A stretch of DNA of 32,000 nucleotides from Clostridia bacterium (GCA_017624735.1 JAGAMK010000032.1:8719-40718), one strand, 5' to 3'; counted from the stretch's first letter, positions 1,510 through 26,426 are shown. Program-made: numbers and translations. Notes: generated by a model from the sequence alone, not told the origin.

Positions 1510-1529
1510 CAAAATCACCTATTATATAA

Positions 1530-2255: not shown

Positions 2256-2387
2256 AACATATTTTCCTTTAAATTATTTATGATTAAACATTTTAACAGA
2301 TTTATCAAAATAAAACAACAAAAAAACAAAAAAATAATAGACAAAAATTGTAAAAAGATGTAGTATAGATTATAAGGAGGAGTTATT

Positions 2388-3359: not shown

Positions 3360-3400
3360 AAAAATTGTCCGTAATACAAAATGTATTACGGACAATTTTT
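3358..3400. terminator. Bidirectional rho-independent terminator between convergent genes
   Basis: Perfect hairpin attgtccgtaataca-aaa-tgtattacggacaat, flanked by an A-run on the left and a T-run on the right. Confidence 0.85.
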
Positions 3401-5448: not shown

Positions 5449-5495
5449 ATCCTTTTTACTAATACATAATATTTTAACAAAAAACACAAAAATCG

Positions 5496-6698
5496 TCAAG
5501 ATTCATATATTTCCATTATTTTCATAATATTTTCTTTTTCAGTTTCCAGTACTGAATTATCTGTATTTTTTGTTAAAAAGGATGAAGAATATATTGAAAA
5601 TCCTTTTAAATTATTATTGATGACATCTGATATTTGTCTTGATATTATATCAGAGTTATTTAACCATTCTTGTTTTCCCGATTTAGCATACGAATCTGTT
5701 TTACCTGACTTATAAATACCTAAACCAATTATAAGTTTAGAATTATTTATAGACATCCATTTAAACAATGTATTTGCAAACGGTATATCCTCATTTTCAT
5801 AACCGTAGTATATTTGAGGTATAATATAATCAGCATAACCATCTTCGGTTAACCATTTAATTACATCTGCATAATGATTATTATAGTTTTTATCTATATC
5901 ACCACTTGGGCTAATACTAAAACATAAATCTTCATTAAAACTTTTTACTAATGCATAAATTGAGGTTACTAATGAGTTTATATTTCGCCTTCTATAATCA
6001 TCTAATTTTAGATTACCGCCTATCTCTTTATAGGAATTATATATTTCCTTATCAATATTCTCCGATGTAGTTGGATAAAAGTAATCGTCAATGTGAATAC
6101 CATCAACGGAATAATTATCAAGAATTTCTCGAATTCCATTTAATATATATTTCTGCACTTCAACATATGCAGGATTGTAATATATGTTATTATCTGTGAC
6201 AATTAATCTATCATTATATCCATCATTTAAATATCCATATGCTAAGGTATTTTCAGGAATTTTTCCTGTGTCATTGTCATTTCTTATTCTATAAGGGTTT
6301 ATCCAAGCATGTACTTCTATTCCTAAAGGTTTGCAAATATCAATAAAATTTTGTAAAACATCAAATTTGAGATTTCCTTCTTGATTAGCACAATATGTAC
6401 TAACAGGATAAATTTTTGATTTATAAAAACAATCATCGAAAGCTCGTACATGTAAAAAAACTACGTTAATATTATATTTTTTTAATGTGCTTACCATTTC
6501 GTGTATATTAATTTCAAATTCCTTCTCATTGTTAGAATTATTAACAAATTCTTTTATTTCCTGATATGTAATCCATGTTGCAATAATTTTTTTATCTTCT
6601 GCTTCAATAATTATATCGTCTTTTGAATCAAGTTGTATATTTGAACATGATGAAATCATAAATAAACATATAACAATCAAATAAAAAATTTTTTTCAA
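5496..6698 (-). CDS. Lipoprotein, glycosyl-hydrolase-like family 10 (GHL10/YngK-like, DUF187-type)
   Basis: Motifs VFLHVRAFDDCFYKSKIYP, HAWINPYRI and GIHIDDYFYP are typical of GHL10 TIM-barrel proteins. The likely start is TTG 6698 (after GGTGAG), giving MKKIFYLIVICLFMISSC with a lipobox cysteine. The track ORF extends to 6731. Confidence 0.7.
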   Translation of the reverse strand: MKKIFYLIVICLFMISSCSNIQLDSKDDIIIEAEDKKIIATWITYQEIKEFVNNSNNEKEFEINIHEMVSTLKKYNINVVFLHVRAFDDCFYKSKIYPVSTYCANQEGNLKFDVLQNFIDICKPLGIEVHAWINPYRIRNDNDTGKIPENTLAYGYLNDGYNDRLIVTDNNIYYNPAYVEVQKYILNGIREILDNYSVDGIHIDDYFYPTTSENIDKEIYNSYKEIGGNLKLDDYRRRNINSLVTSIYALVKSFNEDLCFSISPSGDIDKNYNNHYADVIKWLTEDGYADYIIPQIYYGYENEDIPFANTLFKWMSINNSKLIIGLGIYKSGKTDSYAKSGKQEWLNNSDIISRQISDVINNNLKGFSIYSSSFLTKNTDNSVLETEKENIMKIMEIYES

Positions 6699-6724
6699 AA
6701 ACTCACCTTTTTTCAAAAAACATA

Positions 6725-6771
6725 TTGACAATATAACTTTTTATGTTATAATAACAGTAATCATTACTGTT
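6725..6771 (+). promoter_or_regulatory. Sigma-A-type promoter of the perR-rbr operon, with a 19-bp perfect palindrome (candidate PerR/Fur-family operator)
   Basis: TTGACA (6725-6730), a 16-nt spacer ending in TGt, then TATAAT (6747-6752). This is immediately followed by aacagtaat-c-attactgtt (6753-6771). Confidence 0.6.
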
Positions 6772-6786
6772 AGTGAGGTGAACAAA

Positions 6787-7167
6787 ATGGCAATTGAAAG
6801 AAAAAGCAAACAACGTGATGCAATAATTAATGAATTATGTTCACGTTACGACCATCCAACAGCTATGGAACTTTATCTTTCAGTAAGAGAGGTAATTCCA
6901 AACCTTAGTTTAGGAACGCTTTATAGAAATCTTTCCCAACTTGAAGAAAACGGTATGGTTTTGAGAATACCAGATGGTTCAACTGACCGTTTTGATGGAA
7001 ATGCTCACCCTCATGTCCATTTTAAATGTTCAATCTGTGGTAAAGTATATGATTTAATGTCATTTAAAAATGACTCTATCACCTTTTCTGATGAGATTAT
7101 AGGTAAAGTAAATAATTACAGTTTAATGGCTTTCGGCGAATGCAAACACTGTAATCAAATAAATTAA
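6787..7167 (+). CDS. perR: Fur-family transcriptional regulator, PerR-like peroxide-stress repressor
   Basis: The ATG at 6787 is preceded by GAGGTG (the track start GTG 6778 is less likely). HTH region: [36 protein letters not shown]. Two CxxC pairs (CSICG, CKHC) are present. The gene lies directly upstream of rubrerythrin. Confidence 0.75.
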
Positions 7168-7193
7168 ATTTTAAATTTTTGGAGGAAAAAGAA

Positions 7194-7739
7194 ATGAAAA
7201 AATTTGTATGTTCAGTATGTGGTTATGTTCATGAAGGAGATTCAGCACCAGAAAGATGCCCTCAGTGCAAAGTTCCTGCTGACAAATTCAATGAAATTAA
7301 AGAAGATGAAAGAACATGGGCAGCAGAACACGTTGTAGGTGTTGCTAAGGGTGTTCGTGAAGATATTATTATGGACCTTAGAGCAAACTTTGAAGGAGAA
7401 TGTTCAGAAGTTGGTATGTACCTTGCTATGGCAAGAGTTGCTCATCGCGAAGGCTATCCTGAAATTGGTCTCTACTGGGAAAAAGCTGCTTGGGAAGAAG
7501 CAGAACATGCTGCTAAATTCGCAGAACTTCTTGGTGAAGTTGTAACAGACAGCACAAAGAAAAACCTTGAAATGAGAGTTGACGCTGAAAATGGTGCAAC
7601 TGCAGGTAAATTTGACCTCGCTAAACGTGCTAAAGAACTTGGTCTTGATGCAATCCACGATACAGTTCATGAGATGGCTCGTGACGAGGCAAGACACGGG
7701 AAAGCATTTGAGGGACTTCTCAAGAGATATTTCGGTTAA
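7194..7739 (+). CDS. rbr: Reverse rubrerythrin (N-terminal rubredoxin-like CxxC...CxxC domain plus C-terminal diiron ferritin-like domain). The last ~13 codons past the attL core are supplied by the inserted element.
   Basis: GGAGG at 7181-7185 precedes ATG 7194. The N-terminus is [32 protein letters not shown]. ExxH diiron motifs are present ([20 protein letters not shown]). Confidence 0.9.
7674..7699 (+). repeat. attL core (26-bp perfect direct repeat)
   Basis: atggctcgtgacgaggcaagacacgg is identical to 15927..15952. It is embedded in a ~103-bp imperfect repeat (7659-7762 versus 15912-16015, about 17 mismatches by hand alignment). Confidence 0.85.
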
Positions 7740-7764
7740 TCCCCTTTCTCTATAAATATACTAT

Positions 7765-7797
7765 TACGAGTGGCTGAAAAGTCACTCGTATTTTTTT
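7765..7797 (+). terminator. Rho-independent terminator after the reconstituted rbr; lies on the element side of attL
   Basis: Hairpin tacgagtg-gctgaaaagt-cactcgta followed by ttttttt. Confidence 0.8.
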
Positions 7798-7820
7798 GTT
7801 TGTAAATACATAAGTCGTCA

Positions 7821-7978
7821 AAAAGTAGTCAATAAGACTTTAAAACACTTCTATTATCACCCAAAAGTGGTCATAAGAAAAAGTGGTCATCCTTGTAACA
7901 ACATATTAACAAAATTTATTTAACTATTCAACAAAATATTAACAAGTTTTCTACAACTTTTTTGAGAAAAATATTAAC
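7821..7978 (+). repeat. Left-arm repeat cluster (candidate integrase arm-type or accessory-factor sites)
   Basis: aaaagtagtca (7821-7831) and aaaagtggtca (7863-7873, 7879-7889) are present. taacaac at ~7896 is the inverse of the right-arm gttgtta. atattaac(a) occurs three times (7903, 7936, 7971) at ~33-35 bp spacing. Confidence 0.5.
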
Positions 7979-8014
7979 TTGTCGTTTTTAAAGCACAGGT
8001 TACTTGTTTTAGAG

Positions 8015-8023
8015 TGATATAAT
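8015..8023 (+). promoter_or_regulatory. Extended -10 promoter element upstream of the tandem paralog genes
   Basis: TGaTATAAT. I saw no convincing -35. The implied leader is ~150 nt before ATG 8176. Confidence 0.35.
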
Positions 8024-8175
8024 ATAGACACAACAAAGGGAGAGACACCAAAACAAAAAACCAAAAGGAGTGAGTAAACAAGAGGTAAATGGTTAATCCC
8101 TAAGTTAAATAAAACAATATTAAAATAATAAAAAATAAGGTGACGACTTACCGTTTTAAGAAAGGAAACTTCAAT

Positions 8176-8583
8176 ATGAAAAATACTATCAGAGAAACAA
8201 AAATTGACCTTGCAAACAACCTTACAATCGACCACGCAAACAAAACAATTACAGTGACAAAACAGTTCCAAAAGGCTTCAGGAAAATATGGTTCAGAAGA
8301 ATATTTAGTTTGTGAAGAACTTATGTCAAAGTTTAAAGACTATCGTTTTGTAGTAAGAACACAGAAAAAGAGAAAGTCAACAACACTCTCATATGATGAA
8401 ATGACAAAATACATTTCAAAGCACGACGATAACGGTGAAATCATGAATGAGTTCCTTGTTATGAGAGGCTTAAAAGCAAATGAAAACAATGAAAAGACAT
8501 CAGAGTCACCAAAAGAGATTAGAAATTGGTTTTTCACAAAATATCCTGAACTCAAGAAAATCAATGAAAAAAAAGTTGCTTAA
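8176..8583 (+). CDS. Hypothetical protein, paralog A of a tandem pair
   Basis: AAAGGAAA SD lies before ATG 8176 (the track ORF starts earlier at 8140). It shares with the next gene the blocks DHAN-K-I, F-V/I-VR, YD-x-M-x-KYI and W-F-x-x-KYPE, and the C-terminal KVA. Confidence 0.65.
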   Translation: MKNTIRETKIDLANNLTIDHANKTITVTKQFQKASGKYGSEEYLVCEELMSKFKDYRFVVRTQKKRKSTTLSYDEMTKYISKHDDNGEIMNEFLVMRGLKANENNEKTSESPKEIRNWFFTKYPELKKINEKKVA

Positions 8584-8606
8584 TTAAGAAAGGAAGGTAA
8601 TAAATT

Positions 8607-9029
8607 ATGGCAAAATCAAGAACACCTGTTAAATTCGACCATGCGAACAATAAAATAATTCTTTACAAATGGTTTGAGGAAAAAGCACGATACCCTAAGA
8701 ATGATGAATATACAATGCTTGCTAATTTTATAAAAAGTTTTCCAAATTATACTATAACTGTTCGTGATGATATAAAAACAAACAGTAAACAGGAACACTA
8801 CAAAGGGTTAAAATACGATTATATGGAAAAGTATATAAGAAGGTTTGAACCTGAAGAAACAAGAGAAGAAGTTCTCAAAGAACTTGAGGATAGAAAATTC
8901 ATAAGTCAGTGTCATTCAAAGGGGCATCGTTATCCCACAATAAAGAAATGGTTTTTAGAAAAATATCCTGAGGTAACAACAAATGGTATGCCAATTATTA
9001 CTGATACACCACTCGAAAAAGTTGCATAA
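8607..9029 (+). CDS. Hypothetical protein, paralog B of a tandem pair
   Basis: AAGGAAGG SD lies before the ATG. Similarity to 8176..8583 is visible by eye (FDHANNKIILYKWF, ITVRDDIK, YDYMEKYIRR, IKKWFLEKYPEV, EKVA). Confidence 0.65.
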   Translation: MAKSRTPVKFDHANNKIILYKWFEEKARYPKNDEYTMLANFIKSFPNYTITVRDDIKTNSKQEHYKGLKYDYMEKYIRRFEPEETREEVLKELEDRKFISQCHSKGHRYPTIKKWFLEKYPEVTTNGMPIITDTPLEKVA

Positions 9030-9061
9030 AAGGAAGAATAAATAATGAAACTTAATAAGAT

Positions 9062-9105
9062 AAAAACACCACTGAATTTTAAAGAGTTCAGTGGTGTTTT
9101 TGTTT
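9062..9105 (+). terminator. Rho-independent terminator after the paralog pair
   Basis: Hairpin aaaaacaccactgaa-ttttaaagag-ttcagtggtgttttt followed by a T-run. Confidence 0.85.
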
Positions 9106-9122
9106 GCGTTCGACCGTCCTTT

Positions 9123-9151
9123 TTGGACTTTATTAAAAAAAATTGTTATAA
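9123..9151 (+). promoter_or_regulatory. Strong sigma-A-type promoter of the TAG-containing operon
   Basis: TTGGAC (9123-9128), a 17-nt spacer ending in TGt, then TATAAT (9146-9151). Confidence 0.65.
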
Positions 9152-9221
9152 TATATTATAAGGTCGGACAATGTCTGATACTTTATTTACAAGAAATTTT
9201 ATATATTAAAGGAGTAGAAAA

Positions 9222-9407
9222 ATGTATAGTAAAAAAACTAAAAAAATTGATGTTCGCCTAACTGCAAAAGAGAAAGAGGAAATCCAATAGTAGGCAAAAA
9301 AGTATCACATGAACACAAGTCAATACATTAGGTTTATATGTGAAATGTGGAGGATTTGCGAAAATGGGCATAATCAATCAAGCACCAATATTGAAGTCGA
9401 AGGGTGA
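9222..9407 (+). CDS. Ribbon-helix-helix (CopG/MobC-like) protein. Complete only if the tandem in-frame TAG-TAG (9288-9293) is read through; otherwise a pseudogene.
   Basis: AAAGGAG lies 7 nt before ATG 9222. The conceptual product is MYSKKTKKIDVRLTAKEKEEIQ-XX-AKKYHMNTSQYIRFICEMWRICENGHNQSSTNIEVEG. The R-L-T-x-x-E-K...A-x-x-x-x-M-x-x-S-x-YIR pattern typical of RHH proteins spans the TAG pair. Confidence 0.6.
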
Positions 9408-9915
9408 AAAAAACAGAGATAAAAAATGGGGTATGGCAATAAGAACACATGAACTTGAAACAATACTTTTTAATGGTCTGACAGGAAAACAAGGTGCATA
9501 GTTAAAACTGATGTTATTTTTGACAGGAAATGCAGACAACGGAAGTTTTGCAATCGCAGAGGCAACAGTTATGAGCCGTTGTGGAATGTCAGAAACAACA
9601 TACAAGAGTGCAAGAAAATCATTGGTAGAAAAAGGTTGGATAATCCACAAACCAAGTGTAAACGGTCAACAGGGTGAAATCATTGTGGATTATGATACAA
9701 TTTATAAAAGTGCAGAGAGGGATGTTGATAATACCCCTTCCCCTGACATTGAAAATACCCCTTCAAATTCTGATTGTTCCTCGGCAGGGGTTATTGAATA
9801 TACACATAATAATAAAGTTGAAAAAACAAATAATAATATTATAAAATCAAATATTATAAACAAACCAAAAGTAAATGATGAGTTCAGTGATGAGAAAGAA
9901 AACTTCATATTTTAA
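9364..9915 (+). CDS. Putative replication-initiator/replisome-organizer-like winged-helix protein. Requires read-through of the in-frame TAG at 9499-9501; otherwise a pseudogene.
   Basis: GGAGGA lies 9 nt before ATG 9364. The product is ...WGMAIRTHELETILFNGLTGKQGA-X-LKLMLFLTGNADNGSFAIAEATVMSRCGMSETTYKSARKSLVEKGWIIHK..., so the wHTH-like segment straddles the TAG. The ATG at 9511 used by the track has no SD. Confidence 0.55.
9726..9764 (+). repeat. Two 15-bp direct repeats (iteron-like) inside the Rep-like gene linker
   Basis: tgataataccccttc (9726-9740) and tgaaaataccccttc (9750-9764). Related ATACCCC(T) motifs occur at 10749, 10897 and 11009. Confidence 0.5.
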
Positions 9916-9932
9916 GAAAAAGGAGAATTCAA

Positions 9933-10367
9933 ATGAGTAAATATGCAGACTATATTTACAACAAATATTTAGAATAGGAATGGTCAAAAGAATTTGACTG
10001 TGCAGGGGTCTATTCAATAACCGTCAACAATAAAATTGTATATGTTGGTAAAAGTAAAAATATACTCTACAGAATGGCAGAACATTGGATTTCAATGGCA
10101 AATCCAAAAGAAAACAAATACAAAGTATTATCAGAGGCAAGAAGTAGAAAATATAAAATTCGATTTAATATTTTACATACTGCATCAAGTCGCACAATGG
10201 ATGAAATTGACGAGGAAATAGGAGAAAGAGAGGGTTATTTTATTCGTCTCTACACTCCCCCTCTTAATTATCAAATTCCAAAAGAGGAAAATTGGAGAAA
10301 ATTTAAAATTAACAGGGGTGCATTGAATATATCCCTTGATTAGATTTTGGAAGGAGAAATTATATGA
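9933..10367 (+). CDS. GIY-YIG nuclease-domain protein. Has an in-frame TAG at 9975-9977 and a second TAG at 10341-10343, followed 7 codons later by a TGA that overlaps the next ATG.
   Basis: AGGAG lies 7 nt before ATG 9933. The product is MSKYADYIYNKYLE-X-EWSKEFDCAGVYSITVNNKIVYVGKSKNILYRMAEH...EREGYFIRLYTPPLNYQ (GIY...YVG...R...E...N pattern). The GVY motif lies upstream of the track start at 10074, and that start has no SD. Confidence 0.6.
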
Positions 10368-10552
10368 ATAAAGAAATGTTAGAAACATTACGAGACTTAG
10401 GAAAAGTCCCTGACTTATTCTATTATCAACTCAATGGAAAGTCGGCAAATGAAAATTTTAGAGAATAGAGAAATAATTTTCTTGAATTATTAGAAAATTC
10501 TGATGAACCTGAAACCATAAAAATCATCACGGAAAGTAAGGTGAAAGAATAA
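10364..10552 (+). CDS. Small hypothetical protein (62 codons) with an in-frame TAG at 10466-10468
   Basis: GGAAGGAG SD lies before ATG 10364. The frame continues after the TAG to TAA 10550-10552, which abuts the next ATG (10553), itself preceded by AAGGTGAAAG. Confidence 0.45.
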
Positions 10553-10699
10553 TGGCAAACATAAAAGAAAGAAACAAGAAAAAACAAAAAAAGAAGAAAA
10601 ACATACTCGAGTCAGAAATTCTTGCAATTTTGCAAAAAAGTTTAAAAACTGCACTCGATATGGCACTTGATGAATTATTAAAAGACTTCAAGTAATACA
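10553..10699 (+). CDS. Small basic/helical hypothetical protein (48 aa)
   Basis: MANIKERNKKKQKKKKNILESEILAILQKSLKTALDMALDELLKDFK. An SD is present and a terminator follows. Confidence 0.4.
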
Positions 10700-10700
10700 A

Positions 10701-10743
10701 ACGGCAAACCAAGAGAAACAATCTCAAGGTTTGCCGTATTTTG
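10701..10743 (+). terminator. Rho-independent terminator ending the TAG-containing operon
   Basis: Hairpin acggcaaacc...ggtttgccgt followed by atttt. Confidence 0.6.
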
Positions 10744-11008
10744 CGTTTATACCCCTTTTGGCTCGTTTGACGAGTAAAACATCATTCTATCCTTTACAGT
10801 CATAAAAACCGTAATTCAGAATGAAATACACACTTAGACGGAGAATGAGCCACGCACAATTACAAATTGAGTGGCACAAAATTTTTATCCTGAAATATAC
10901 CCCCTACTTACCTGTTCATAAAAACAAATGATTTCATGAACATTATTAGGTGACAAATAATGTAGTAAATTTAACCGTCAAAACACAGGATTTTGTTCAC
11001 GAAATAAC

Positions 11009-11236
11009 TTACCCCTTTTCATGAACATCAGAGTCTTTTACATACTCCATAAGGTCGGCAGGTTGACAATCAAACTTTTCACAAAGTCGAGAAAGGGTTT
11101 TGCGGTCTAATCCACCTGTTCCGTTCTTTAATGCAGTCAATGTTCCCTGCCCTATCAATTTGTCTTGACGGATTTTGTATGTTGTATAACCATTATCCTT
11201 CAAAAGTTTGAATAGTTTATCATATATTATTGGCAT
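11009..11236 (-). CDS. XRE/Cro-CI family helix-turn-helix regulator (75 aa)
   Basis: AAGGAGGC SD lies before the ATG at 11236. The product is MPIIYDKLFKLLKDNGYTTYKIRQDKLIGQGTLTALKNGTGGLDRKTLSRLCEKFDCQPADLMEYVKD. The track ORF has an unsupported N-terminal extension to 11320. Confidence 0.7.
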   Translation of the reverse strand: MPIIYDKLFKLLKDNGYTTYKIRQDKLIGQGTLTALKNGTGGLDRKTLSRLCEKFDCQPADLMEYVKDSDVHEKG

Positions 11237-11264
11237 ATAAAAAGCCTCCTTTTCCATTGTCCAT

Positions 11265-11371
11265 ATTATATCAAAGAATATGCACAAAGTCAAGTGTATA
11301 AAATAAACAAGTATATGCACCTAACTTTGTGCATATTGCCGATTGACTATACACTTAACTTAGTGTATAAT
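11265..11371. promoter_or_regulatory. Divergent promoter/operator switch region
   Basis: The leftward promoter on the minus strand is TTGACT (11293-11288), 17 nt, TATAAT (11270-11265). The rightward promoter is TTGACT (11343-11348), 17 nt, TATAAT (11366-11371). A 14-bp perfect inverted repeat is present: aatatgcacaaagt (11277-11290) and actttgtgcatatt (11325-11338). The palindrome tatacact-taactt-agtgtata (11348-11369) overlaps the rightward -10. Confidence 0.65.
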
Positions 11372-11408
11372 TAAGACATCAAATAAAACAACAAAGGAGA
11401 CAACAATT

Positions 11409-11684
11409 ATGTCAAACAACGAAATCATCAAAAATATTGAGGCACTCACAGAATGGGAAACAATCATTGAGGATGCAAAGGCAGAAGCCGAAGCAATCAG
11501 AGATATGCTAAAGGCAGAAATGCTCGAACAGAACATTGAAGAACTTGAGGCAGGAACATACATCATCCGTTGGACATCAGTTCTTACAAATAGATTTGAT
11601 ACAACGGCATTTAAGAAATCTCATGGTGATATGTATAAAGAGTTCACAAAGCAAGTTAGTAGTCGTCGTTTCTCAATTTCATAA
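11409..11684 (+). CDS. Hypothetical 91-aa protein (helical, acidic N-terminus), first gene of the rightward operon
   Basis: AAAGGAG SD lies before the ATG. It is an uninterrupted ORF ending in TAA. Confidence 0.55.
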   Translation: MSNNEIIKNIEALTEWETIIEDAKAEAEAIRDMLKAEMLEQNIEELEAGTYIIRWTSVLTNRFDTTAFKKSHGDMYKEFTKQVSSRRFSIS

Positions 11685-11736
11685 AACAATAAAACTGCCC
11701 CATAGTCTGACTGTGGGGCAGAGAAAGGATATAACA

Positions 11737-12342
11737 ATGAATTATGGATACGCAAGGTGTTCCACTAACGAGACTAAACAAGACATTCAGAGGCAAGTCA
11801 AGGAACTCAAAAACGCAGGGGCAAAAGAAATATTCCTTGAATACGAACATGGTGACAGTGCAATAAAACAAGAACTTTCATTCCTTTTGGAACAGGCTCG
11901 TGAGGGTGATACAATTTACACTCTTGAAGTCTCGAGACTTGCACGAAGTACAAAACAACTTTGTGAGATTATAGAAACAGTCAAAGACAAAAAACTTAGA
12001 CTTGTTATTGTTGGAAGTATCACGGTTGATTGTTCTAACGGTCAGATTGACCCAATGACAAACGCGTTCATTCAAATGTCTGGAGTGTTTGCGGAACTCG
12101 AACTCCGTATTATCAGGGCAAGAGTGCGTTCAGGCGTTGCAAATGCGAAGGCAAAAGGGATTAAAGTCGGGCGACCGCAAACAACAACAGACCAAATCCC
12201 ACCAATATTCTTCAGACATTATCCTGCGTTCAAATCTGGCAGTCTGAATCTTTCAGAATTTGCTCGCGTCTGCGGTCTGAGTAGAAACACAGTTTATAAA
12301 TATCTTTCTCTTTTGGAGACACAAAAACAGGGAACGAAATAA
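11737..12342 (+). CDS. Small serine recombinase (resolvase/invertase family, ~201 aa)
   Basis: The product from ATG 11737 is MNYGYARCSTNETKQDIQRQVKELKNAGAKEIF... (Y-A-R-x-S catalytic serine motif). It also has LEVSRLARS and a C-terminal HTH (LSEFARVCGLSRNTVYKYL). The track ORF start at 11536 overlaps the previous gene and is rejected. Confidence 0.85.
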   Translation: MNYGYARCSTNETKQDIQRQVKELKNAGAKEIFLEYEHGDSAIKQELSFLLEQAREGDTIYTLEVSRLARSTKQLCEIIETVKDKKLRLVIVGSITVDCSNGQIDPMTNAFIQMSGVFAELELRIIRARVRSGVANAKAKGIKVGRPQTTTDQIPPIFFRHYPAFKSGSLNLSEFARVCGLSRNTVYKYLSLLETQKQGTK

Positions 12343-12362
12343 TCCGTTCCCTGTTATAATTT
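12321..12362. terminator. Bidirectional terminator between convergent genes
   Basis: aacagggaacg (12326-12336) pairs with cgttccctgtt (12345-12355). T-runs are present on both strands. Confidence 0.75.
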
Positions 12363-13193
12363 TTATAACCCTAATAATTCTTTTTTCTTTGCATCAAATT
12401 CTTCTTGTGTGATTGCACCCATATCAAGAAGTTCTTTGAATTTTTTAAGTTCATCCGCAATAGAAACGGCAGGCTGTGAAGTCGCCACAGTCTGTGTTTT
12501 AATAGCCTCAAATTCTTCATCGGAAATTATAGCAAGGTTTGTTGAGTTACACTGAGGGCAACGATTGAAATCAACAATTTTATTCAGACTGTTCTGTGCG
12601 TTTGTCTGATTAACAGCACTTGCAGTATACGCACCGCCTAAACCACCTGCAATTTGTCCAATGCTTGACCACATAGCACTTTTGGCATTACTTATGTTTT
12701 TCTTAATATCAGCCTGATTATAGCAAAAGATATGTCCGCAAACATTACAACGTTTTCTTATTTCCTTATTAGGGTCTGGTTTTTCCACTTTAACTTTTTC
12801 AATATCATATTCACCTGCATAAGTTTTTTCAGGAACATTAAAGCCATTTTTCTTTTTAATTTCTACATTTCCTAAATGTTTTTGAAGTCTGTTGGCAAGT
12901 GATTCAATAATATGATACTTATCTTTTGACGGTGAATTTAAAATAAATGTGTAAACACCTTGTCTATTGATATATCGAGTACCTTTAATAATAAATCCAA
13001 TTTGTCCTACTGTAAGAAGTCCAGGCTTTAACAATTCTATACCTGTAATATCAGAGAATGGCACTTCAATAATAGTATCAACACCAACACTGTTAGTAAA
13101 CAAACCTTTTACCGTTGACCTGAAACAATTCTCATCGAAATCAAATTCATACTTTTGCATACCATTGTTAATCGTCACTAAATTTTCACTCAT
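12363..13193 (-). CDS. PH-like (bacterial PH/DUF4429-type) / split zinc-ribbon / SHOCT-domain protein
   Basis: GGAGGA lies 9 nt before the ATG at 13193 (MSENLVTINNG...). Motifs include LLTVGQIGFIIKG and CNVCG...CPQC. The C-terminal ELKKFKELLDMGAITQEEFDAKKKELLGL matches the SHOCT pattern. Confidence 0.65.
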   Translation of the reverse strand: MSENLVTINNGMQKYEFDFDENCFRSTVKGLFTNSVGVDTIIEVPFSDITGIELLKPGLLTVGQIGFIIKGTRYINRQGVYTFILNSPSKDKYHIIESLANRLQKHLGNVEIKKKNGFNVPEKTYAGEYDIEKVKVEKPDPNKEIRKRCNVCGHIFCYNQADIKKNISNAKSAMWSSIGQIAGGLGGAYTASAVNQTNAQNSLNKIVDFNRCPQCNSTNLAIISDEEFEAIKTQTVATSQPAVSIADELKKFKELLDMGAITQEEFDAKKKELLGL

Positions 13194-13208
13194 TTTTTTC
13201 ATTCCTCC

Positions 13209-13249
13209 AAAATAAAAAAGTGTGTGCAAACCGAAGTTATGCACACACG
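13209..13249 (-). terminator. Intrinsic-terminator-like hairpin inside the 5' leader, ending directly at the SD of the SHOCT gene (possible attenuator)
   Basis: On the minus strand: gtgtgtgca-taacttcggtt-tgcacacac, followed by ttttttatttt and then GGAGGA. Confidence 0.5.
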
Positions 13250-13272
13250 AAAAACACAAACTCCGTTTTGCT

Positions 13273-13388
13273 ACCACACAAAAATTTCATTCTAACAAAA
13301 GGAATATGAAATCAAGAAGTCTGTGTTTTTACCGAGATATAAACACTTACTCCTTCTGTTAGAACAATATAGAATTTTTGTGTGGTGT
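13273..13388. repeat. Long imperfect inverted repeat (~116 bp overall, with 14-bp perfect outer arms)
   Basis: accacacaaaaatt (13273-13286) pairs with aatttttgtgtggt (13375-13388). Inner arm segments ttctaaca and aagga also pair. Confidence 0.7.
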
Positions 13389-13392
13389 TTTT

Positions 13393-13471
13393 ATTATAAC
13401 AAATAAAAAAACACTATTCAAGTATTTTTATAAAAATCCGCCTTCACTCTTTTGGTTTTATGTGCTATAAT
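13393..13471. promoter_or_regulatory. Back-to-back divergent promoters for the SHOCT gene (minus strand) and the WYL regulator (plus strand)
   Basis: Minus strand: TTGAAT (13421-13416), 17 nt, TATAAT (13398-13393). Plus strand: TTCACT (13443-13448), 17 nt ending in TGc, TATAAT (13466-13471). Confidence 0.55.
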
Positions 13472-13500
13472 CAAGCCAATAGACACAAGAAGGTGAAATC

Positions 13501-14520
13501 ATGTCCAAAAGACAAAATCAAAAACTAAAAACATTATATGTTGCACAATACTTTCTTGAAAACTCTGATGAAAATCATTCTGTTAATGCAAGTGATATTA
13601 GAGACTACCTAATGGATGAGCATAAAATTATATGTGAACGCCGTTCCATTTACAGTGATATTTCTGCTCTGCGTGATGAGTTCGGCATGGATATTGAGTC
13701 TGTTAAGGGTGGTAAATACAGGCTTTTATCAAGACAATTTAACTTTGAAGATTTACGGCTTTTGGCTCAGTGCGTTTATGCCACCAAATTTATTTCTGAA
13801 AACCGAGCACACAAACTTGTTGAAACCATAGGTGAATTTTGTAGTATATATCAAAGAGAAGAACTTGAGGCAGAAGTTTTTCTTTGCGACCGTGTTAAAA
13901 CAACAGAAAACAACCTTTTATTTCCTCTAAGTGAAATCAATTATGCTATGTCAACAAGGTATGAAGGCAAACCAAGAAAACCATCAAAAATAACATTTAA
14001 ATACACAAAATACACCATTGACGATATACATTCTCAAGTAGAATGTCGCAAAGGTTCAAAATACAAAGTAAGCCCCTACAAACTAATAATCAATGAGGGA
14101 AACTATTATTTATTAGCCTATGATGACCGATATAAAGATATGAGAACTTTTCGTGTTGACCGTATGCAAGAAGTAAAAGCAACCGAAGAACCAAGAGAAG
14201 GAAATGAAATCTTTGACGGTGTTGACCTCAGAACATACACAAAAAGAGTTTTCTCTATGTTCAGTGGTGAAAACAAGCGTGTTAGTATGAGATTTAATAA
14301 TTCACTTATTAGTGCAGTAATCGAAAGATTTGGTAATAAATCTGATGTTACTTACAGACCTGACGGCAAAAGCAATTTCATAGTAATTGCTGATGTGGAA
14401 ATCAGTGACCAATTTTACGCATGGATGTGTGGTTTTCGCAAGAGAGCAAGTATTGTTCATCCCCCTGAAGTTGTTGAAGGAATGAAAAATTTCTTAAAAG
14501 ATATTGAAAGTAAATATTAA
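13501..14520 (+). CDS. WYL-domain transcriptional regulator (N-terminal wHTH plus WYL plus C-terminal WCX-like region)
   Basis: AAGGTGAAA SD is present. The HTH-like N-terminus is ASDIRDYLMDEHKIICERRSIYSDISALRDEFG. The WYL region is SPYKLIINEGNYYLLAYDDRYKDMRTFRVDRM. Confidence 0.8.
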   Translation: MSKRQNQKLKTLYVAQYFLENSDENHSVNASDIRDYLMDEHKIICERRSIYSDISALRDEFGMDIESVKGGKYRLLSRQFNFEDLRLLAQCVYATKFISENRAHKLVETIGEFCSIYQREELEAEVFLCDRVKTTENNLLFPLSEINYAMSTRYEGKPRKPSKITFKYTKYTIDDIHSQVECRKGSKYKVSPYKLIINEGNYYLLAYDDRYKDMRTFRVDRMQEVKATEEPREGNEIFDGVDLRTYTKRVFSMFSGENKRVSMRFNNSLISAVIERFGNKSDVTYRPDGKSNFIVIADVEISDQFYAWMCGFRKRASIVHPPEVVEGMKNFLKDIESKY

Positions 14521-14526
14521 AAAATG

Positions 14527-14560
14527 GCAGGAAGCAAATTAAAACTTCCTGCTATTTTTT
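14527..14560. terminator. Terminator between the convergent WYL and integrase genes
   Basis: Hairpin gcaggaag-caaattaaaa-cttcctgc followed by tatttttt. Confidence 0.7.
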
Positions 14561-15776
14561 ATAACTTATTTAGATTATCACGCAGTATTTCAATACCTGT
14601 TTTGGACATTGAGATATAGTATTTTTCTGTTACTTTTGAACTACTGTGACCCATTTGATTACACAATAAATGCGTTGGTGTGTTCATGTCTGCCATAGCC
14701 GTTCCGTAAGTATGTCTTAAATAATGAAATTTAAAAGTTAAATTATGTATTTCTTTTAACCTGCGTGTATGATATTTCATTGAATTTACAGTCTGAATTT
14801 TACCATTATCAACTGTATTAACTAATTCAAGAGAAGAAATCATTTGACCGTCAATATCTGTAATAAATATCTGATTTTGAAGTCTGACTTCTTTCAGATT
14901 TTGTTCTACCTCTATCCTCTTTTCTGATAGTTCTGATAAATATCTTTGTAACATATCATTCATGTATATTGTTCTTTTGGCGTTCCTTGTTTTTAAAGAA
15001 ACAAGTTTAATTAGTCCATTCTGATATTGCATTTGACGGTCAATGATAATCACACCTTTTTCTACATCAACATTATCCCACTTCAGACCGTAACATTCAT
15101 TTATTCTCAAACCGCTGAATTTACCAAGATAATACGCAGTTTCTCCATTACTACCTGAAAAATAATCATCAAGTATTCTGATTTCTTCTTTAGAAAATGT
15201 AACAACATCATCCTCATCATCAGTTTTTCTTTTAGGCATATGAATTTTTGTGCCTTTATTCAAACATAGTTTACTATAAATTTCACTATCAAGATAATCT
15301 CTTGAATATGCTTGACCGAAAATAAGATAGAACATTTTGAGAAATGCTTCCACATAACCATATGCCCTGCCCTCATTGTAATAAAGATATGAAAGATAAT
15401 CATTGATTTCTGCGACTGTAATATCATCAATATATCTATCACCGAACTTATCACAAATATGATTTTTCCATAAAGAGTCCTGCTTTTTAATTGTTGTATA
15501 TGCTTTGTCATATCTTCCTTTTTCACAGTATTCTTCATACACCTGTCTAACTGTTACTATACCAAGAGAACTGCGAACAGAAAGATATTCTGATTGTCTA
15601 TATTTTTTTATTGCTTCTGTTCTTGCCCTCTTGGCTTGAGTCTGAGTTCTAAAAACATTTCCATTTTCGTCTTTTCTTTTACGATAATGAGTTTTTTTAC
15701 CACTTTTAGTAACGGTAAACCTATATTCCCAATTACCATTATTAAGTTGATAAACGCCTGTTTCCTTCTTTTTCAT
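14559..15776 (-). CDS. int: Tyrosine site-specific integrase (phage integrase family) with an N-terminal arm-binding-type domain
   Basis: GGAGTG SD lies before the ATG at 15776. The N-terminus is GVYQLNNGNWEYRFTV. C-terminal catalytic signatures are GLRINECYGLKW, HYLRHTYGTAMA and GHSSSKVTEKYY (R...H-x-x-R...Y). Confidence 0.9.
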   Translation of the reverse strand: MKKKETGVYQLNNGNWEYRFTVTKSGKKTHYRKRKDENGNVFRTQTQAKRARTEAIKKYRQSEYLSVRSSLGIVTVRQVYEEYCEKGRYDKAYTTIKKQDSLWKNHICDKFGDRYIDDITVAEINDYLSYLYYNEGRAYGYVEAFLKMFYLIFGQAYSRDYLDSEIYSKLCLNKGTKIHMPKRKTDDEDDVVTFSKEEIRILDDYFSGSNGETAYYLGKFSGLRINECYGLKWDNVDVEKGVIIIDRQMQYQNGLIKLVSLKTRNAKRTIYMNDMLQRYLSELSEKRIEVEQNLKEVRLQNQIFITDIDGQMISSLELVNTVDNGKIQTVNSMKYHTRRLKEIHNLTFKFHYLRHTYGTAMADMNTPTHLLCNQMGHSSSKVTEKYYISMSKTGIEILRDNLNKL

Positions 15777-15794
15777 CAATTATCACTCCATTTT

Positions 15795-15867
15795 TGACTA
15801 CTAAAGACGGTCACTATTTCTTATAAAGTTGTTAAAAAGTGGTATAAAAGTTGTTAAAAAGTTGTTA
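15795..15867 (+). repeat. Right-arm repeat cluster (candidate arm-type sites)
   Basis: tgactact (15795-15802) is the inverse of the left-arm agtagtca. aaaagtggta occurs at ~15836-15845. aagttgtta occurs three times (15826, 15848, 15859). Confidence 0.5.
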
Positions 15868-15911
15868 TATACTTCTTAGAAAGACTTATGTTTTTTAGTA
15901 AGAACTAATCA

Positions 15912-15992
15912 GATACAGTTCACGAAATGGCTCGTGACGAGGCAAGACACGGTAAGGCATTTGAAGGTCTTTTGAACAGATATTTTAAATAA
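15912..15992 (+). pseudogene. rbr: Displaced original 3' end of rbr (last 26 codons plus stop), with no start codon or upstream coding sequence
   Basis: It translates as [26 protein letters not shown]. The intact gene ends ...[26 protein letters not shown]. Confidence 0.85.
15927..15952 (+). repeat. attR core (26-bp perfect direct repeat)
   Basis: Identical to 7674..7699. Confidence 0.85.
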
Positions 15993-16014
15993 TCCCCTAT
16001 CACAATAAATACAC

Positions 16015-16056: not shown

Positions 16057-16464
16057 TTACGGATAATCGTATGTAATGTGTTGTTCGTTACCAGCAACAC
16101 AAGTTACTTTAATTCTATAGTCTTCGAAGATATTAATTAGTCTTGTTTCTTCAAGAGTGAGATAAGTACCATTAGACTCAAATGCTGACCATGTTTCAAT
16201 TGTTTCATAGCCTGTTGATTTTAATTTTTGTAACTCAATCTGAATAAAAAGATTAACAGTAAATTGTGATGTAAGTAAAACAGATGAGGTTGAGTTTATT
16301 CCACTGATAGTAAAAGATGTTGCAACAGTACTAATTATCGACCAACAAGGCATAACCCCATACTCATCTTCTACCGTTTCAGCGGAAGAATTTATTGCTA
16401 AAAGAGAAAAGAGCATTGTGATAACCAACAATATACTTAAACTTTTTTTGACAAATGTTGACAT
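16057..16464 (-). CDS. Small secreted hypothetical protein
   Basis: 135-aa ORF with signal peptide MSTFVKKSLSILLVITMLFSLLAINSSAE and an SD (AAGGGGGTG). Confidence 0.6.
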   Translation of the reverse strand: MSTFVKKSLSILLVITMLFSLLAINSSAETVEDEYGVMPCWSIISTVATSFTISGINSTSSVLLTSQFTVNLFIQIELQKLKSTGYETIETWSAFESNGTYLTLEETRLINIFEDYRIKVTCVAGNEQHITYDYP

Positions 16465-16518
16465 ATTTTTTCACCCCCTTAATAAGAAACAATCGTATTA
16501 AAGAGATGTTTTATTACT

Positions 16519-17148
16519 CTACTCTACACTTCCTGCAATTCTCAATAACTCGTTTTTATTAAGATGAGCCTCAATTTGATATACATAATCATGTTTTATC
16601 CATATTATTTTGTTAAGTCCTAAATCACCTTCACAATACACAAATTTTATGCCATCAATGATTGTTACATCTGAAGACAAATTTTCTGTATCATATTCAA
16701 CTTTTACAGATGAAGAATACATTATAATTGAAAAAAACTCACCCTTACTATTTACATATCTGTTTATCGTGTTTTTTCCTTCAAAATTACAGCTATCAAG
16801 CACATATCCTTCAGGTATGTAACCAACTTTAATATCTGAATTAACATAGTTGTTATTATCTCTTGTAATCTTAAAAAGACTAAACTCATCAAAGGTATCA
16901 ACAATTGCTTCACGGGATGATGGGAATACAAATGCTGACATTAACAAAGCACATAAAATTGCTGCAACAAGCATAATTTTTATTGTTTTTGTTGTTAAAA
17001 CATGGTAACGGTCGTTACGCATTTTATTAAACAACTTTTTCTTCCATTTTTCATGTTTGGGGCTACATTCTGCCTTGGGCATTGTTTCAGGAAAAGATGA
17101 TACCCATTCTTCAAAGGACAATGCACATGCTTCTGCTAATTTACTCAT
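16519..17148 (-). CDS. Membrane anti-sigma factor-like protein (DUF4367-type extracytoplasmic domain)
   Basis: It overlaps the upstream sigma-factor gene by 8 nt. It has a single TM helix (IKIMLVAAILCALLMSAFVF) and a GYIPEGYVL motif. It terminates with TAG. Confidence 0.6.
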   Translation of the reverse strand: MSKLAEACALSFEEWVSSFPETMPKAECSPKHEKWKKKLFNKMRNDRYHVLTTKTIKIMLVAAILCALLMSAFVFPSSREAIVDTFDEFSLFKITRDNNNYVNSDIKVGYIPEGYVLDSCNFEGKNTINRYVNSKGEFFSIIMYSSSVKVEYDTENLSSDVTIIDGIKFVYCEGDLGLNKIIWIKHDYVYQIEAHLNKNELLRIAGSVE

Positions 17149-17686
17149 CCTTCATTGCCTCCTTAACATAATTTTTAACAAATTGCATTGATTGCATACT
17201 TCTTTTTCTTACCATAGGCTCTGTCATATTGAGTTCTTTACTTATTTCTATTGCACTCATTTGATAAATATGTTTAAGATAAAATACTTGTTTGTTTAAT
17301 TCAGGCAAAGCATCAATTGCTTCTTTTAAGAGCATTGTGTCGCAAATGTCAAATTCTTCTTCACCAATGCTATAAAAATCTTCAAGGTCGTAATCAACTA
17401 CATTATTTTTGTGCTTTCTCTCTTTTCTGTACATATCAATTGCTATACATTTTGATATAACCATAACATAGTTTCTAAATTTCTTATCGTCAAAATCTTG
17501 TGTTATGTTATGAAAATTTTTCGCAAAGTGAATTAGTACTTCCTGTGAACAGTCTTCCGCTGCCTCTTTAGTTTTTAAATGTTGCTTTGAAATATAGAAA
17601 ATAGTGTCATAAAACTTATCATAGAATTCTTCAAAACGAGGCTTGTCCTCCGGATTTTGAAGTAACATTAAGCATAATGAAATCAT
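17141..17686 (-). CDS. ECF-type RNA polymerase sigma-70 family factor
   Basis: Region-2-like AEDCSQEVLIHFAKNF...YVMVISKCIAIDMYRK and a region-4 HTH (MSAIEISKELNMTEPMVRKR). Confidence 0.75.
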   Translation of the reverse strand: MISLCLMLLQNPEDKPRFEEFYDKFYDTIFYISKQHLKTKEAAEDCSQEVLIHFAKNFHNITQDFDDKKFRNYVMVISKCIAIDMYRKERKHKNNVVDYDLEDFYSIGEEEFDICDTMLLKEAIDALPELNKQVFYLKHIYQMSAIEISKELNMTEPMVRKRSMQSMQFVKNYVKEAMKDE

Positions 17687-17756
17687 TTTAATCTCTCCTT
17701 GACTTTTTACAAATTATACCTTAAAACGACATATTTGGCAAGATATTACAATCAAC

Positions 17757-17788
17757 AAAAAGTCCCGATGTTGTATCGGGACTTTTTA
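17757..17788. terminator. Terminator downstream of spoVM
   Basis: Hairpin aaaaagtcccgat-gttgt-atcgggacttttt. Confidence 0.8.
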
Positions 17789-17866
17789 CTATTCTTTTTT
17801 TATTCCAAACATCAGCCTTAATAAACCACTAATAATTTTAGGATTTTTAATAACAACTACTTTCAA
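17789..17866 (-). CDS. spoVM: Stage V sporulation protein M (25-aa micro-protein, TTG start)
   Basis: Not in the ORF track. GGGAGG lies 8 nt before the TTG. The product MKVVVIKNPKIISGLLRLMFGIKKE resembles B. subtilis SpoVM (MKFYTIKLPKFLGGIVRAMLGSFRKD). It sits downstream of thiN, as in Bacillus. It stops with TAG. Confidence 0.7.
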   Translation of the reverse strand: MKVVVIKNPKIISGLLRLMFGIKKE

Positions 17867-17880
17867 AAAAGCTGCCTCCC

Positions 17881-18027
17881 CTAGCCTTTACAGAGGGCAA
17901 ATCCACATATCACAAGCGCAATTGCAAGTAATACGATTATGACTTTTTGGGGAAGAATTAAAGATATTAGTAAACTAAGTCCTAATGTTACAAAGATTAT
18001 TCCCCTATTATTCTTTCTTCTTCCCAT
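17881..18027 (-). CDS. Small hydrophobic membrane protein (48 aa), hypothetical
   Basis: GGGGGA SD is present. The product is MGRRKNNRGIIFVTLGLSLLISLILPQKVIIVLLAIALVICGFALCKG. It stops with TAG just before the spoVM SD. Confidence 0.4.
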   Translation of the reverse strand: MGRRKNNRGIIFVTLGLSLLISLILPQKVIIVLLAIALVICGFALCKG

Positions 18028-18084
18028 AAAAAATCCCCCCTGTATATGTATTTTACTACATTATACGTGGGGGATATTTTTTTG

Positions 18085-18717
18085 TTACATCTGAGTTTCT
18101 ATAATAATCAAAGTTCCTTTTTCAACAGAAATTTCACCGAAATCACTAACAATATCATTACTTATTCCAATTGGGATAAATGGATTTAAAGTATAATTCT
18201 CAATGGAATAATGAAAACCTTTCTCCGTTACACCAAACGCTTTATCTCCAAACGCAAAAACTGATATCTGTTTATTGGGTGAAAATGAAATTTTTATAGA
18301 TGAATCCGTAATGGCATAAAAAATATGTTTGTCGTCAATTATTCTAAATTCATTACCATCCTTTGAAGCATTTGCCATAACAGAAATATTGGCAAAAGTG
18401 TGTTCAAAACGTCCACCGGTACCACCTAAAAGCAAAAATTTAGTAAAGCCCTGCTTAATGCCCTCGTTATAGGCAGCCAAACAGTCTGTAACGTCTTTTT
18501 CGACTGGCAAAGTAATCTTATCTGCATTTTGTACAAAGCCCTTTACAGAGTCAAAATCGCCAATTACAAGGTCAGGCTGAATTCTTGCTTCAACAGCAAT
18601 ATCATAGCCACTGTCTGCACAAATAATATAATCATCAGTAGAAATATTCAGTTTTAAAAGTTCAACAGAACAATCTCCGCCACCAATTATGACGCATCTT
18701 GTTTTTATATTTCCCAT
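18085..18717 (-). CDS. thiN: Thiamine pyrophosphokinase
   Basis: Motifs VIIGGGD, GDFDS, KDVTD and LGGTGGRFEH. Its position after rsgA matches the Bacillus yloS/thiN arrangement. Confidence 0.8.
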   Translation of the reverse strand: MGNIKTRCVIIGGGDCSVELLKLNISTDDYIICADSGYDIAVEARIQPDLVIGDFDSVKGFVQNADKITLPVEKDVTDCLAAYNEGIKQGFTKFLLLGGTGGRFEHTFANISVMANASKDGNEFRIIDDKHIFYAITDSSIKISFSPNKQISVFAFGDKAFGVTEKGFHYSIENYTLNPFIPIGISNDIVSDFGEISVEKGTLIIIETQM

Positions 18718-19577: not shown

Positions 19578-19582
19578 ATAAC

Positions 19583-21715: not shown

Positions 21716-21738
21716 TCTTAAAACTCCTTTCAGCAAAA

Positions 21739-23511: not shown

Positions 23512-23513
23512 AT

Positions 23514-24776: not shown

Positions 24777-24779
24777 AAT

Positions 24780-25487: not shown

Positions 25488-25489
25488 AT

Positions 25490-26422: not shown

Positions 26423-26426
26423 AAAA

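Follow-up and report, generated by a model that had tools for sequence, protein, structure and literature searches.

A code-partitioned integrative island from a Clostridia bacterium, a candidate satellite whose operon appears to use TAG as a sense codon

How can an operon interrupted by in-frame stop codons be expressed when the element that carries it has no recognizable means of reading them and the host ends genes of its own with the same codon? The question is raised by an 8.3-kb island at positions 7674 to 15952 of a 32,000-nucleotide stretch of DNA (GCA_017624735.1, JAGAMK010000032.1:8719-40718; hereafter the window, meaning the whole stretch analyzed), which is part of a 70.5-kb metagenome-assembled contig from a low-GC Clostridia bacterium. 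The island, bounded by 26-nucleotide attachment site (att) cores, is code-partitioned: TAG codons occur in frame in one five-gene operon and in no other island gene.

A strongly promoted operon interrupted by TAG

The operon lies on the forward strand behind an intrinsic-terminator-type hairpin (9062 to 9101, forward strand) that stands 3' of the gene parB and insulates the operon promoter. This promoter (9123 to 9152, forward strand) is near consensus with a TG extension, TTGGAC-17-(TG)TATAAT, and is conserved across the family of related islands, as are a leader hairpin (9163 to 9179) and an AAAGGAG Shine-Dalgarno (SD) sequence (9208 to 9224). Five forward-strand genes follow: a ribbon-helix-helix (RHH) gene of the NikA-like or CopG type (9222 to 9407, 61 codons, stop TGA); a Rep-like initiator gene with an HTH_36 domain and a PHROGs assignment to DnaD-like or replication initiation proteins (9364 to 9915, 183 codons, stop TAA), which overlaps the end of the RHH gene; a GIY-YIG nuclease gene (9933 to 10367, 144 codons, stop TGA); the conserved small open reading frame (ORF) orf62 (10364 to 10552, stop TAA); and the conserved small lysine-rich orf47 (10552 to 10695, stop TAA).

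Six in-frame TAG codons were found in four of these five genes, namely, an adjacent pair in the RHH gene at 9288 to 9293 (9288 and 9291), one in rep at 9499, two in the GIY-YIG gene (9975, which precedes the GIY motif, and 10341), and one in orf62 at 10466. The remaining gene, orf47, has none in the window and has TAG in some relatives. No in-frame TAA or TGA was found in the operon genes of the window, and the Pfam and PHROGs domain matches span the TAG positions. In the standard code, RHH stops after 22 amino acids, Rep loses its first 49 amino acids, and for GIY-YIG the only point of restart is 10074, past the GIY motif; these truncations bear out the claim of an earlier note on this DNA that the operon cannot be fully translated unless TAG is decoded. 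The TGA of the GIY-YIG gene overlaps the orf62 start (ATGA), and the TAA of orf62 shares its last base with the orf47 start (TAATG), overlaps that fit translational coupling and read-through at the 10341 TAG.

The leader hairpin, GTCGGACAATGTCTGAT, follows directly after the promoter and is kept in relatives. It could be an operator for the RHH or the XRE regulator, or an attenuator.

Related islands contain TAG as their only in-frame stop

About 25 related loci were taken from GTDB genomes, Joint Genome Institute (JGI) metagenomes, and Logan/ENA assemblies, which together cover at least 12 distinct lineages from animal guts, assigned to Candidatus Fimenecus, Acutalibacteraceae, Oscillospiraceae, and unclassified Clostridia, with a Rep identity of 51 to 97% among these diverged members. 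Islands are present in the assemblies ERZ28018701 and SRR12529201/195, in the JGI metagenomes 3300022660 and 3300024268, and in the metagenome-assembled genomes JAZSDZ01, JAFQRY01, JAGAOT01, JAZUQA01, JAZRFT01, SVOV01, and JAFQCH01. The gene order is kept, and the integrases and integration sites vary. One 146-kb contig, L021, is in standard code, contains a remote Rep homolog, and was set aside as uninformative.

Family-wide, 24 distinct in-frame stop sites were counted, all of them within the operon and 24/24 TAG; every relative that has the operon has in-frame stops there and, the short contig L020 apart, TAG only. If stop types were random, the chance of TAG alone at 24 sites would be (1/3)^24, or ~4e-12. 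No frameshifts were found in the operon in the core set. The TAG at Rep codon 46 is widely shared, and the sites shift in GIY-YIG (codons 14, 15, or 22) and in RHH (codons 23, 24, 34, or 42). In the core-family islands, each GIY-YIG copy has TAG at codon 14, 15, or 22, and each RHH copy has at least one TAG. The presence of TAG in every copy of both genes, despite the differing positions, suggests selection for gating rather than drift.

TAG most probably encodes glutamine in genes under selection

At the TAG columns of DNA-level alignments, members without TAG have Gln in 36% of cases versus a background of 1.8%, and in 7 of 21 columns Gln is more frequent than any other residue. Most of the other residues are Glu or Lys, which have codons a single step away from TAG. 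Genuine Gln occurs in members without TAG at Rep codons 46, 102, and 103, and codons 102 to 103 read QQ in the window and TAG TAG in L016. As a share of Gln-like codons in the operon, TAG accounts for 77/264 family-wide and 6/17 in the window. Judged from these alignments, TAG in the operon is most probably a sense codon for Gln, as in genetic code 15.

Full-length Rep homologs in databases that show Gln at the TAG site were rejected as support, as P0004 and P0018, at least, come from code-15 calling of genes whose DNA has TAG; database Q residues were left out and the Gln test was redone at the DNA level. Many of the proteins P0001 to P0020 and loci L022 to L026 are full length only through code-15 gene calling, with Q assumed, and the NCBI standard-code calls of the same genes are truncated (P0021, 109 amino acids; P0076, 108 amino acids).

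Pairwise ratios of nonsynonymous to synonymous substitution (dN/dS) were mostly 0.07 to 0.35 for RHH, Rep, and GIY-YIG, also downstream of the first TAG, with 0.49 and 0.72 in two short RHH comparisons. The low values after the TAG codons indicate that the operon sequences are translated, and the sequence record argues firmly for a functional operon.

Only the operon is incompatible with the standard code

Outside the operon, CAA/CAG occurs 60 times in the window island and TAG not once in frame (P~4.5e-12 at the rate of the operon). No in-frame TAG was found in parA, parB, XRE, p91, the resolvase, WYL, or the integrase in any relative, as expected from the description in the earlier note of the maintenance genes as readable in the standard code. 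Apparent stops in some non-operon alignments were genuine TAA terminators. Throughout 13 islands TAG is never a terminator, since 66/66 conserved non-operon genes and 52/52 operon genes end with TAA or TGA. The whole island is compatible with a state in which TAG is sense, and only the operon is incompatible with the standard state; the code partition of the island is firm. Host genes use TAG as a terminator in 3/29 ORFs called window-wide, all 3 among the ~20 host ORFs. A comparison of coding density between the codes was discarded as too noisy in AT-rich DNA.

No tRNA-type decoder is detectable in the island

No tRNA was found in the 32-kb window by ARAGORN and no tRNA-like Rfam match at E<=1 in the island, in agreement with the failure of the first reading to find a cloverleaf in the element or the window. 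Hence an own suppressor tRNA(CUA), a mark of recoded elements, was not detected in the island by either tool. No tRNA was found inside the island of any relative, and the few tRNAs in the flanks have ordinary anticodons. The lack of a detectable tRNA-type decoder in the island firmly implies that decoding must come in trans.

Directly after the operon lies a conserved non-coding block of 313 bp (10696 to 11008), which starts with an invariant hairpin with a 14-bp stem (10701 to 10737), the operon terminator. This hairpin is unchanged across elements whose proteins share only 60 to 75% identity, and further invariant motifs are GCGGTC..AAACCGT, CAGACGGAGA..CCACGCA, and TTTGTTCA.GAAA. RNAalifold found no covarying pairs in the block beyond the terminator hairpin, and it was dismissed as a structured RNA. 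The block is possibly an origin, a binding site for Rep or another protein, or an oriT-like site. Matches to its motifs in IMG/VR phages were attributable to chance only.

A similar early module occurs in a TAG-recoded phage

Phage contigs were reached through GIY-YIG homologs and, for ten IMG/VR contigs, through a portal profile. The contig L044 (Logan, ERR9559683) belongs to a TAG-recoded temperate siphophage with 0 TAG in the integrase gene, 6 in TerL, and 5 in MuF. Its early module consists of RHH, a small ORF, a DnaD_N/HTH_36 Rep, GIY-YIG, a small ORF, and HNH, each with TAG codons. The GIY-YIG protein of L044 is 42% identical to that of the island (40 to 45% in the phage set), and its Rep and RHH resemble the island proteins only remotely, so the link to phages rests on GIY-YIG homology and module architecture. 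Phages of the L044 type, including the partly recoded L046, L038, and L014, resemble the island in the order RHH-Rep-GIY-YIG, in a TAG-free integrase, and in a similar promoter architecture. In contrast to the island, HNH, terS, TerL, portal, and head genes follow the module in the phage, which lacks the parA/parB, XRE-p91-Res, and WYL genes.

The earlier note had proposed a search for recoded phages with dense in-frame TAG and a tRNA-Sup(CUA). The first part was found in L044, along with the shared module, but no tRNA(CUA) was found in any fragment; all phage relatives fetched, the ten IMG/VR contigs included, were negative for suppressor tRNAs, and all are incomplete contigs. In published surveys suppressors were detected in only ~40% of TAG-recoded phages (Borges et al., 10.1101/2021.08.26.457843).

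In the phages L046 (5105 to 8081) and L038 (8993 to 11793), tail, terminase, and portal genes are TAG-free and accessory genes are TAG-rich, and the GIY-YIG gene of L038 has three TAG codons in a row. No tRNA was found in L046 or L038. Accessory genes gated by TAG may be common in this ecosystem; alternatively, these may be homing endonucleases that spilled over from recoded phages. The TAG counts in the accessory genes of L046 and L038 reach up to 6 in GIY-YIG, 5 in HNH, and 4 in a 95-amino-acid ORF.

The portal-related phage contig L050 and the island L028 come from the same JGI metagenome, 3300022660, and L046 comes from an ENA assembly with an accession close to that of the window. Such shared sources are a hint, without statistics, of co-occurrence of islands and recoded phages. 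L014 and L057 share metagenome 3300045988, in which island or island-related Rep loci are found with L046-type phage contigs.

Between the integrase and the recoded early operon of L044 lies a 930-bp non-coding region (2084 to 3013) that holds the 3' part of a tRNA-Ser(GGA), an att remnant, and a near-consensus promoter followed by ~200 nucleotides of GC-rich hairpins without an Rfam match. The hairpin stretch may be a non-canonical RNA. Another contig, L040 (Logan, SRR19668109, 12.5 kb), represents a phi29-like podophage, recognized by its Gp16 ATPase, type B DNA polymerase, Phi29 major capsid protein, and connector; it is recoded throughout, with in-frame TAG in most genes, and the 10.6 kb seen contained no tRNA. 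In its close relative L048, the GIY-YIG gene translates in the standard code.

A helper-dependent island as the proposed explanation

The window element is a small island with an integrase, att sites, regulators, and its own replication initiator. The gene content given in the earlier note was recovered by Pfam and PHROGs matches for the integrase, WYL, XRE, resolvase, RHH, Rep, and GIY-YIG genes. The absence of structural and conjugation genes that it reported was also upheld: of the capsid, portal, terminase, tail, and lysis families that a prophage would have, none matched in Pfam or PHROGs in the window island or in ~12 relatives, and no relaxase, type IV coupling protein (T4CP), or type IV secretion system (T4SS) family was detected in any member; a relaxase, an oriT, or both would mark an integrative and mobilizable element (IME).

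We propose, with confidence that is about evenly balanced, that this is a helper-dependent, satellite-like integrative island with two translation classes of genes. The first class would comprise the integrase, XRE, WYL, resolvase, p91, parA, parB, and the cargo, and would maintain the integrated state in a standard-code host; having no TAG in frame or as terminator, these genes are read correctly in either code. The second class would be the five-gene operon, with a strong promoter and consensus ribosome-binding site, TAG as sense, and, in nearly all of its genes, one or more early TAG codons. In ordinary cells, release factor 1 would end the proteins of this class after a few dozen residues, so that a transcript may be formed and no functional product. 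Once amber suppression is acquired, full-length operon proteins would be made and the RHH-Rep pair would drive replication of the island. The likeliest source of the suppressor would be a TAG-recoded temperate phage of a lineage with the same module order. Such a decoder from a helper phage is plausible, if unproven, in view of the module and the host order that islands and recoded phages share, the location at tRNA-Thr, and the published biology of Topaz phages; excision, replication, packaging, and transfer of the island are proposals. More tentatively, and with less than even confidence, we suggest that the genetic code itself is the induction signal, in that the amber suppressor of a recoded phage would switch on decoder-less islands. 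The islands and the TAG-gated phage accessory genes may then belong to a wider practice, in which suppressor tRNAs would tell mobile elements, in trans, of a co-infection.

Several observations weigh against this proposal. Among ~55 loci, the incomplete contigs of related phages included, neither a tRNA(CUA) nor any other gene for a code switch was found. No terS, cos or pac site, or capsid-remodeling gene was recognized in the island, and contigs showed no terminal overlaps that would reveal circular or excised forms. The family is absent from INPHARED, PLSDB, and, one distant relative aside, IMG/VR (Rep itself had no match in INPHARED or PLSDB), so that nothing shows the island ever to be packaged. 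Rep lacks TAG in lineages L012, L027 to L029, and L018/L019. GIY-YIG is absent from islands L008 and L015, which keep a TAG-coded RHH-Rep-orf62-orf47 set; with its relatives placed in phages like homing endonucleases, this gene may be a mobile passenger. Finally, the short contig L020 gave an N-terminal Rep alignment with two TAA codons in another frame, which appears to be either a degraded copy or a misalignment.

Alternative explanations

The alternative that survives best, although we regard it as unlikely, is that the host supplies a suppressor, possibly a conditional one, or that near-cognate read-through is leaky, with the TAG codons acting as a phage-independent translational attenuator. 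It would account for the lack of a phage-borne suppressor in any related phage fragment and for the several otherwise standard-code phages from the same ecosystem that carry TAG-laden accessory genes without a tRNA. The host genes of the window, however, terminate normally with TAG, and leaky read-through of the adjacent TAG codons in RHH, or of the triple TAG in the GIY-YIG gene of L038, would give a negligible yield. Moreover, TAG interchanges freely with CAA/CAG at Gln sites, which implies efficient decoding when the genes are needed, and a strong promoter and a consensus SD sequence would be odd partners of an attenuator.

More doubtful is an anti-phage tripwire, in which the operon, notably GIY-YIG, would be translated when a recoded phage brings its suppressor and would destroy phage or host DNA, the benefit being immunity. 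The restriction-modification, Mrr-type, and TIR-domain cargo beside the WYL regulator in relatives and the early TAG that GIY-YIG always has would suit such a role, and the satellite PLE is reported to use the nucleases NixI and CapR against its helper. Yet RHH, Rep, and the small ORFs are gated as well, the two islands without the nuclease keep their TAG-coded genes, and a replication initiator better suits amplification of the island.

Only a slim chance is left for an IME moved by conjugation, in which the NikA-like RHH would be a relaxosome accessory protein, the post-operon hairpin an origin of transfer (oriT), and the TAG codons baggage from a recoded phage. Against the RHH score above the Pfam threshold for NikA-like proteins and the invariant hairpin at 10701 to 10737 stands the lack of any relaxase, T4CP, or T4SS family in all members; in addition, the island lineage shows turnover of TAG sites under purifying selection, which argues that the code-15 context is current and not historical.

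Slimmer still is the chance of an island-borne, unrecognized, non-canonical decoder RNA, for which the non-coding block or the leader would be a candidate. The many invariant positions of the 313-bp block and the published view that phage suppressors can escape detection (Borges et al.) would favor it, but ARAGORN and Rfam (E<=1) gave nothing tRNA-like and the block showed no covariation apart from the terminator hairpin.

A decaying remnant with pseudogenes produced by nonsense mutations, an outcome that the earlier note had set against its own hypothesis, would explain why the genes are truncated in the standard code and is contradicted by the TAG-only stops at 24 sites, a core set free of frameshifts, dN/dS values after the stops that lie well below 1 and so indicate purifying selection, and the preservation of promoter, SD sequence, and gene overlaps over at least 12 lineages, so that practically no credence is left to it.

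Relation to known recoded and satellite elements

Garnet and Topaz are TAG-recoded temperate phages of 22 to 34 kb in standard-code gut Firmicutes and Bacteroidetes; their integrases are without in-frame TAG, TAG is Gln in the other genes, and the code was proposed to partition lysogeny from the active program (Borges et al., bioRxiv 10.1101/2021.08.26.457843). Topaz prophages sit in Oscillospiraceae at tRNA-Thr (10.1101/2021.08.26.457843). The analogy drawn in the earlier note with a lysogeny/lytic code partition holds, as the island has the published Garnet/Topaz layout, a TAG-free integrase versus a recoded program, and several island relatives adjoin tRNA-Thr, the Topaz site. In contrast, Garnet and Topaz are complete phages with recoded structural and lysis genes, whereas the island has no such genes, only a 1.5-kb operon is recoded, and no tRNA was detected.

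The phage-inducible chromosomal islands (PICI), PLE, and phage-inducible chromosomal minimalist islands (PICMI) are likewise small and integrative; they encode an integrase, regulators of the repressor type, and a replication initiator of their own, and they have a variable slot for cargo, which can hold defense genes. They are silent until the helper acts, and PLE deploys nucleases. Unlike the signal proposed here, they sense the helper through protein-protein derepression or helper-induced excision and not through the genetic code; the island also differs in having no recognized terS, capsid-size, or packaging gene, and its helper is only inferred. In the cop-rep modules of small Gram-positive plasmids of the CopG-RepB type, a small RHH gene lies directly upstream of the initiator gene and is co-transcribed with it. 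The island Rep differs from these in being HTH_36/DnaD-like and not a rolling-circle Rep.

Full-text literature searches returned no description of recoded satellites, IMEs, or islands. The earlier note had regarded sensing through a suppressor tRNA as undescribed, which stands for satellites; for co-infecting phages, Borges et al. had speculated that recoding lets a phage sense others through their suppressor tRNAs (10.1101/2021.08.26.457843). The sensing concept is foreshadowed there, but not for a decoder-less, structure-less island. Recoding has so far been described for phages, which are thought to bring their own decoder, and here the code of a non-viral island can be read by neither the island nor, apparently, the host. 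Should the decoder come from a recoded phage, the helper would be sensed at the translational level, a coupling of satellite and helper of a new kind, and nature would provide an instance of the genetic firewall logic of synthetic biology. The TAG pattern also offers a bioinformatic handle for linking satellites to recoded helpers. The origin of the suppressors of TAG-recoded phages becomes a more pressing question. Standard-code annotation fragments such elements, as the truncated NCBI calls in this metagenome-assembled genome illustrate, and other pipelines silently use code 15.

Island boundaries and integration site

Both ends of the island lie in a direct repeat of 103 nucleotides (83% identity between copies), attL at 7659 to 7761 and attR at 15912 to 16014 on the forward strand, within which an exact 26-nucleotide core, ATGGCTCGTGACGAGGCAAGACACGG, occurs at 7674 to 7699 and 15927 to 15952; the limits named in the earlier note are those of this core. 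The attL copy overlaps the 3' end of a rubrerythrin gene (7179 to 7739), of which the part from the core onward is an island-borne replacement; the native 3' end, now displaced, is retained in attR. Such an arrangement is what site-specific integration into a gene's 3' end usually leaves behind. Short direct repeats are present near both ends, AAAAGTGGTCAT twice on the left (7859 to 7895) and the AAAAGTTGTTA type on the right (15830 to 15878), and may be arm-type sites of the integrase.

Two independent Logan assemblies contain the island with 100% identity; contig L002 corresponds to window positions 7661 to 15947 and L003 ends at 15947. Both contigs break within the att repeat, which a heterogeneous population (with empty sites or excised forms) could produce, as could a simple break induced by the repeat. 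L002 was considered as a circular form and rejected because it merely breaks inside the att repeat.

Several relatives carry a different, XerC-like integrase (~310 amino acids) and adjoin tRNA-Thr(GGT), which was located in L006 (17276 to 17351), L007 (8401 to 8476), L009 (8481 to 8556), and L010 (16342 to 16417). A search of IMG/VR with the L006-type integrase led to one standard-code prophage fragment and was rejected as a phage link.

Genes outside the operon and host flanks

Upstream of the operon, the tandem paralogs parA (8140 to 8583, probable start ATG at 8176) and parB (8607 to 9029) lie on the forward strand, contain no TAG, and end with TAA; parB is conserved in the family. An AlphaFold model predicts an alpha/beta fold for parB (predicted local distance difference test score, 76); this model had no fold match in PDB or BFVD, and a profile against PDB sequences gave nothing significant. 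parA, parB, orf62, orf47, and the SHOCT protein received no assignment from Pfam or PHROGs.

Downstream of the operon, an XRE/Cro-C1-type regulator (HTH_26; 11009 to 11236, reverse strand, no TAG, stop TAA) is divergent from p91 (11409 to 11684, forward strand, no TAG), which encodes a highly conserved 91-amino-acid protein (phrog_6244) with weak similarity to the C terminus of RecE-like exonucleases. The intervening region (11265 to 11371) holds divergent promoters near consensus, with 11/12 matches each, and three copies of a 22- to 24-nucleotide inverted-repeat operator-like motif. Matches to p91 in small "Bacteriophage sp." records from human feces proved to be unrelated high-GC elements. 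A small serine recombinase with a Resolvase domain and HTH (11737 to 12342, forward strand, no TAG) is 82 to 92% identical in the close family and ~25% in the distant members L018/L019. A WYL/WCX-domain regulator (13501 to 14520, forward strand, no TAG) and a tyrosine integrase (Phage_int_SAM_3 and Phage_integrase; 14559 to 15776, reverse strand, no TAG, stop TAA) complete the set; the integrase, WYL, XRE, and resolvase genes all have Pfam matches.

The cargo slot between the resolvase and WYL genes (12363 to 13193, reverse strand) encodes a zinc-ribbon/SHOCT protein in the window and is variable across relatives (L015, 5437 to 10070; L012, 13234 to 14508; L018, 12407 to 17627). The cargo seen includes a type III restriction-modification system, an Mrr-type (type IV/PDC-S02) nuclease, and a TIR-TPR-RCC1 protein with an SPFH/zinc-ribbon protein, and in other relatives BspA-type leucine-rich repeat proteins.

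The flanks (window 1 to 7170 and 16057 to 32000) are ordinary host DNA. Upstream of the island are genes for a dockerin/cadherin-like surface protein, a GHL10 protein, and Fur, in addition to the rubrerythrin target gene; the downstream flank encodes a sigma factor with DUF4367, thiamine pyrophosphokinase, RsgA, PASTA kinase/PP2C, RlmN, and RsmB. This gene content indicates a cellulosome-bearing host of the Oscillospirales on the standard code.

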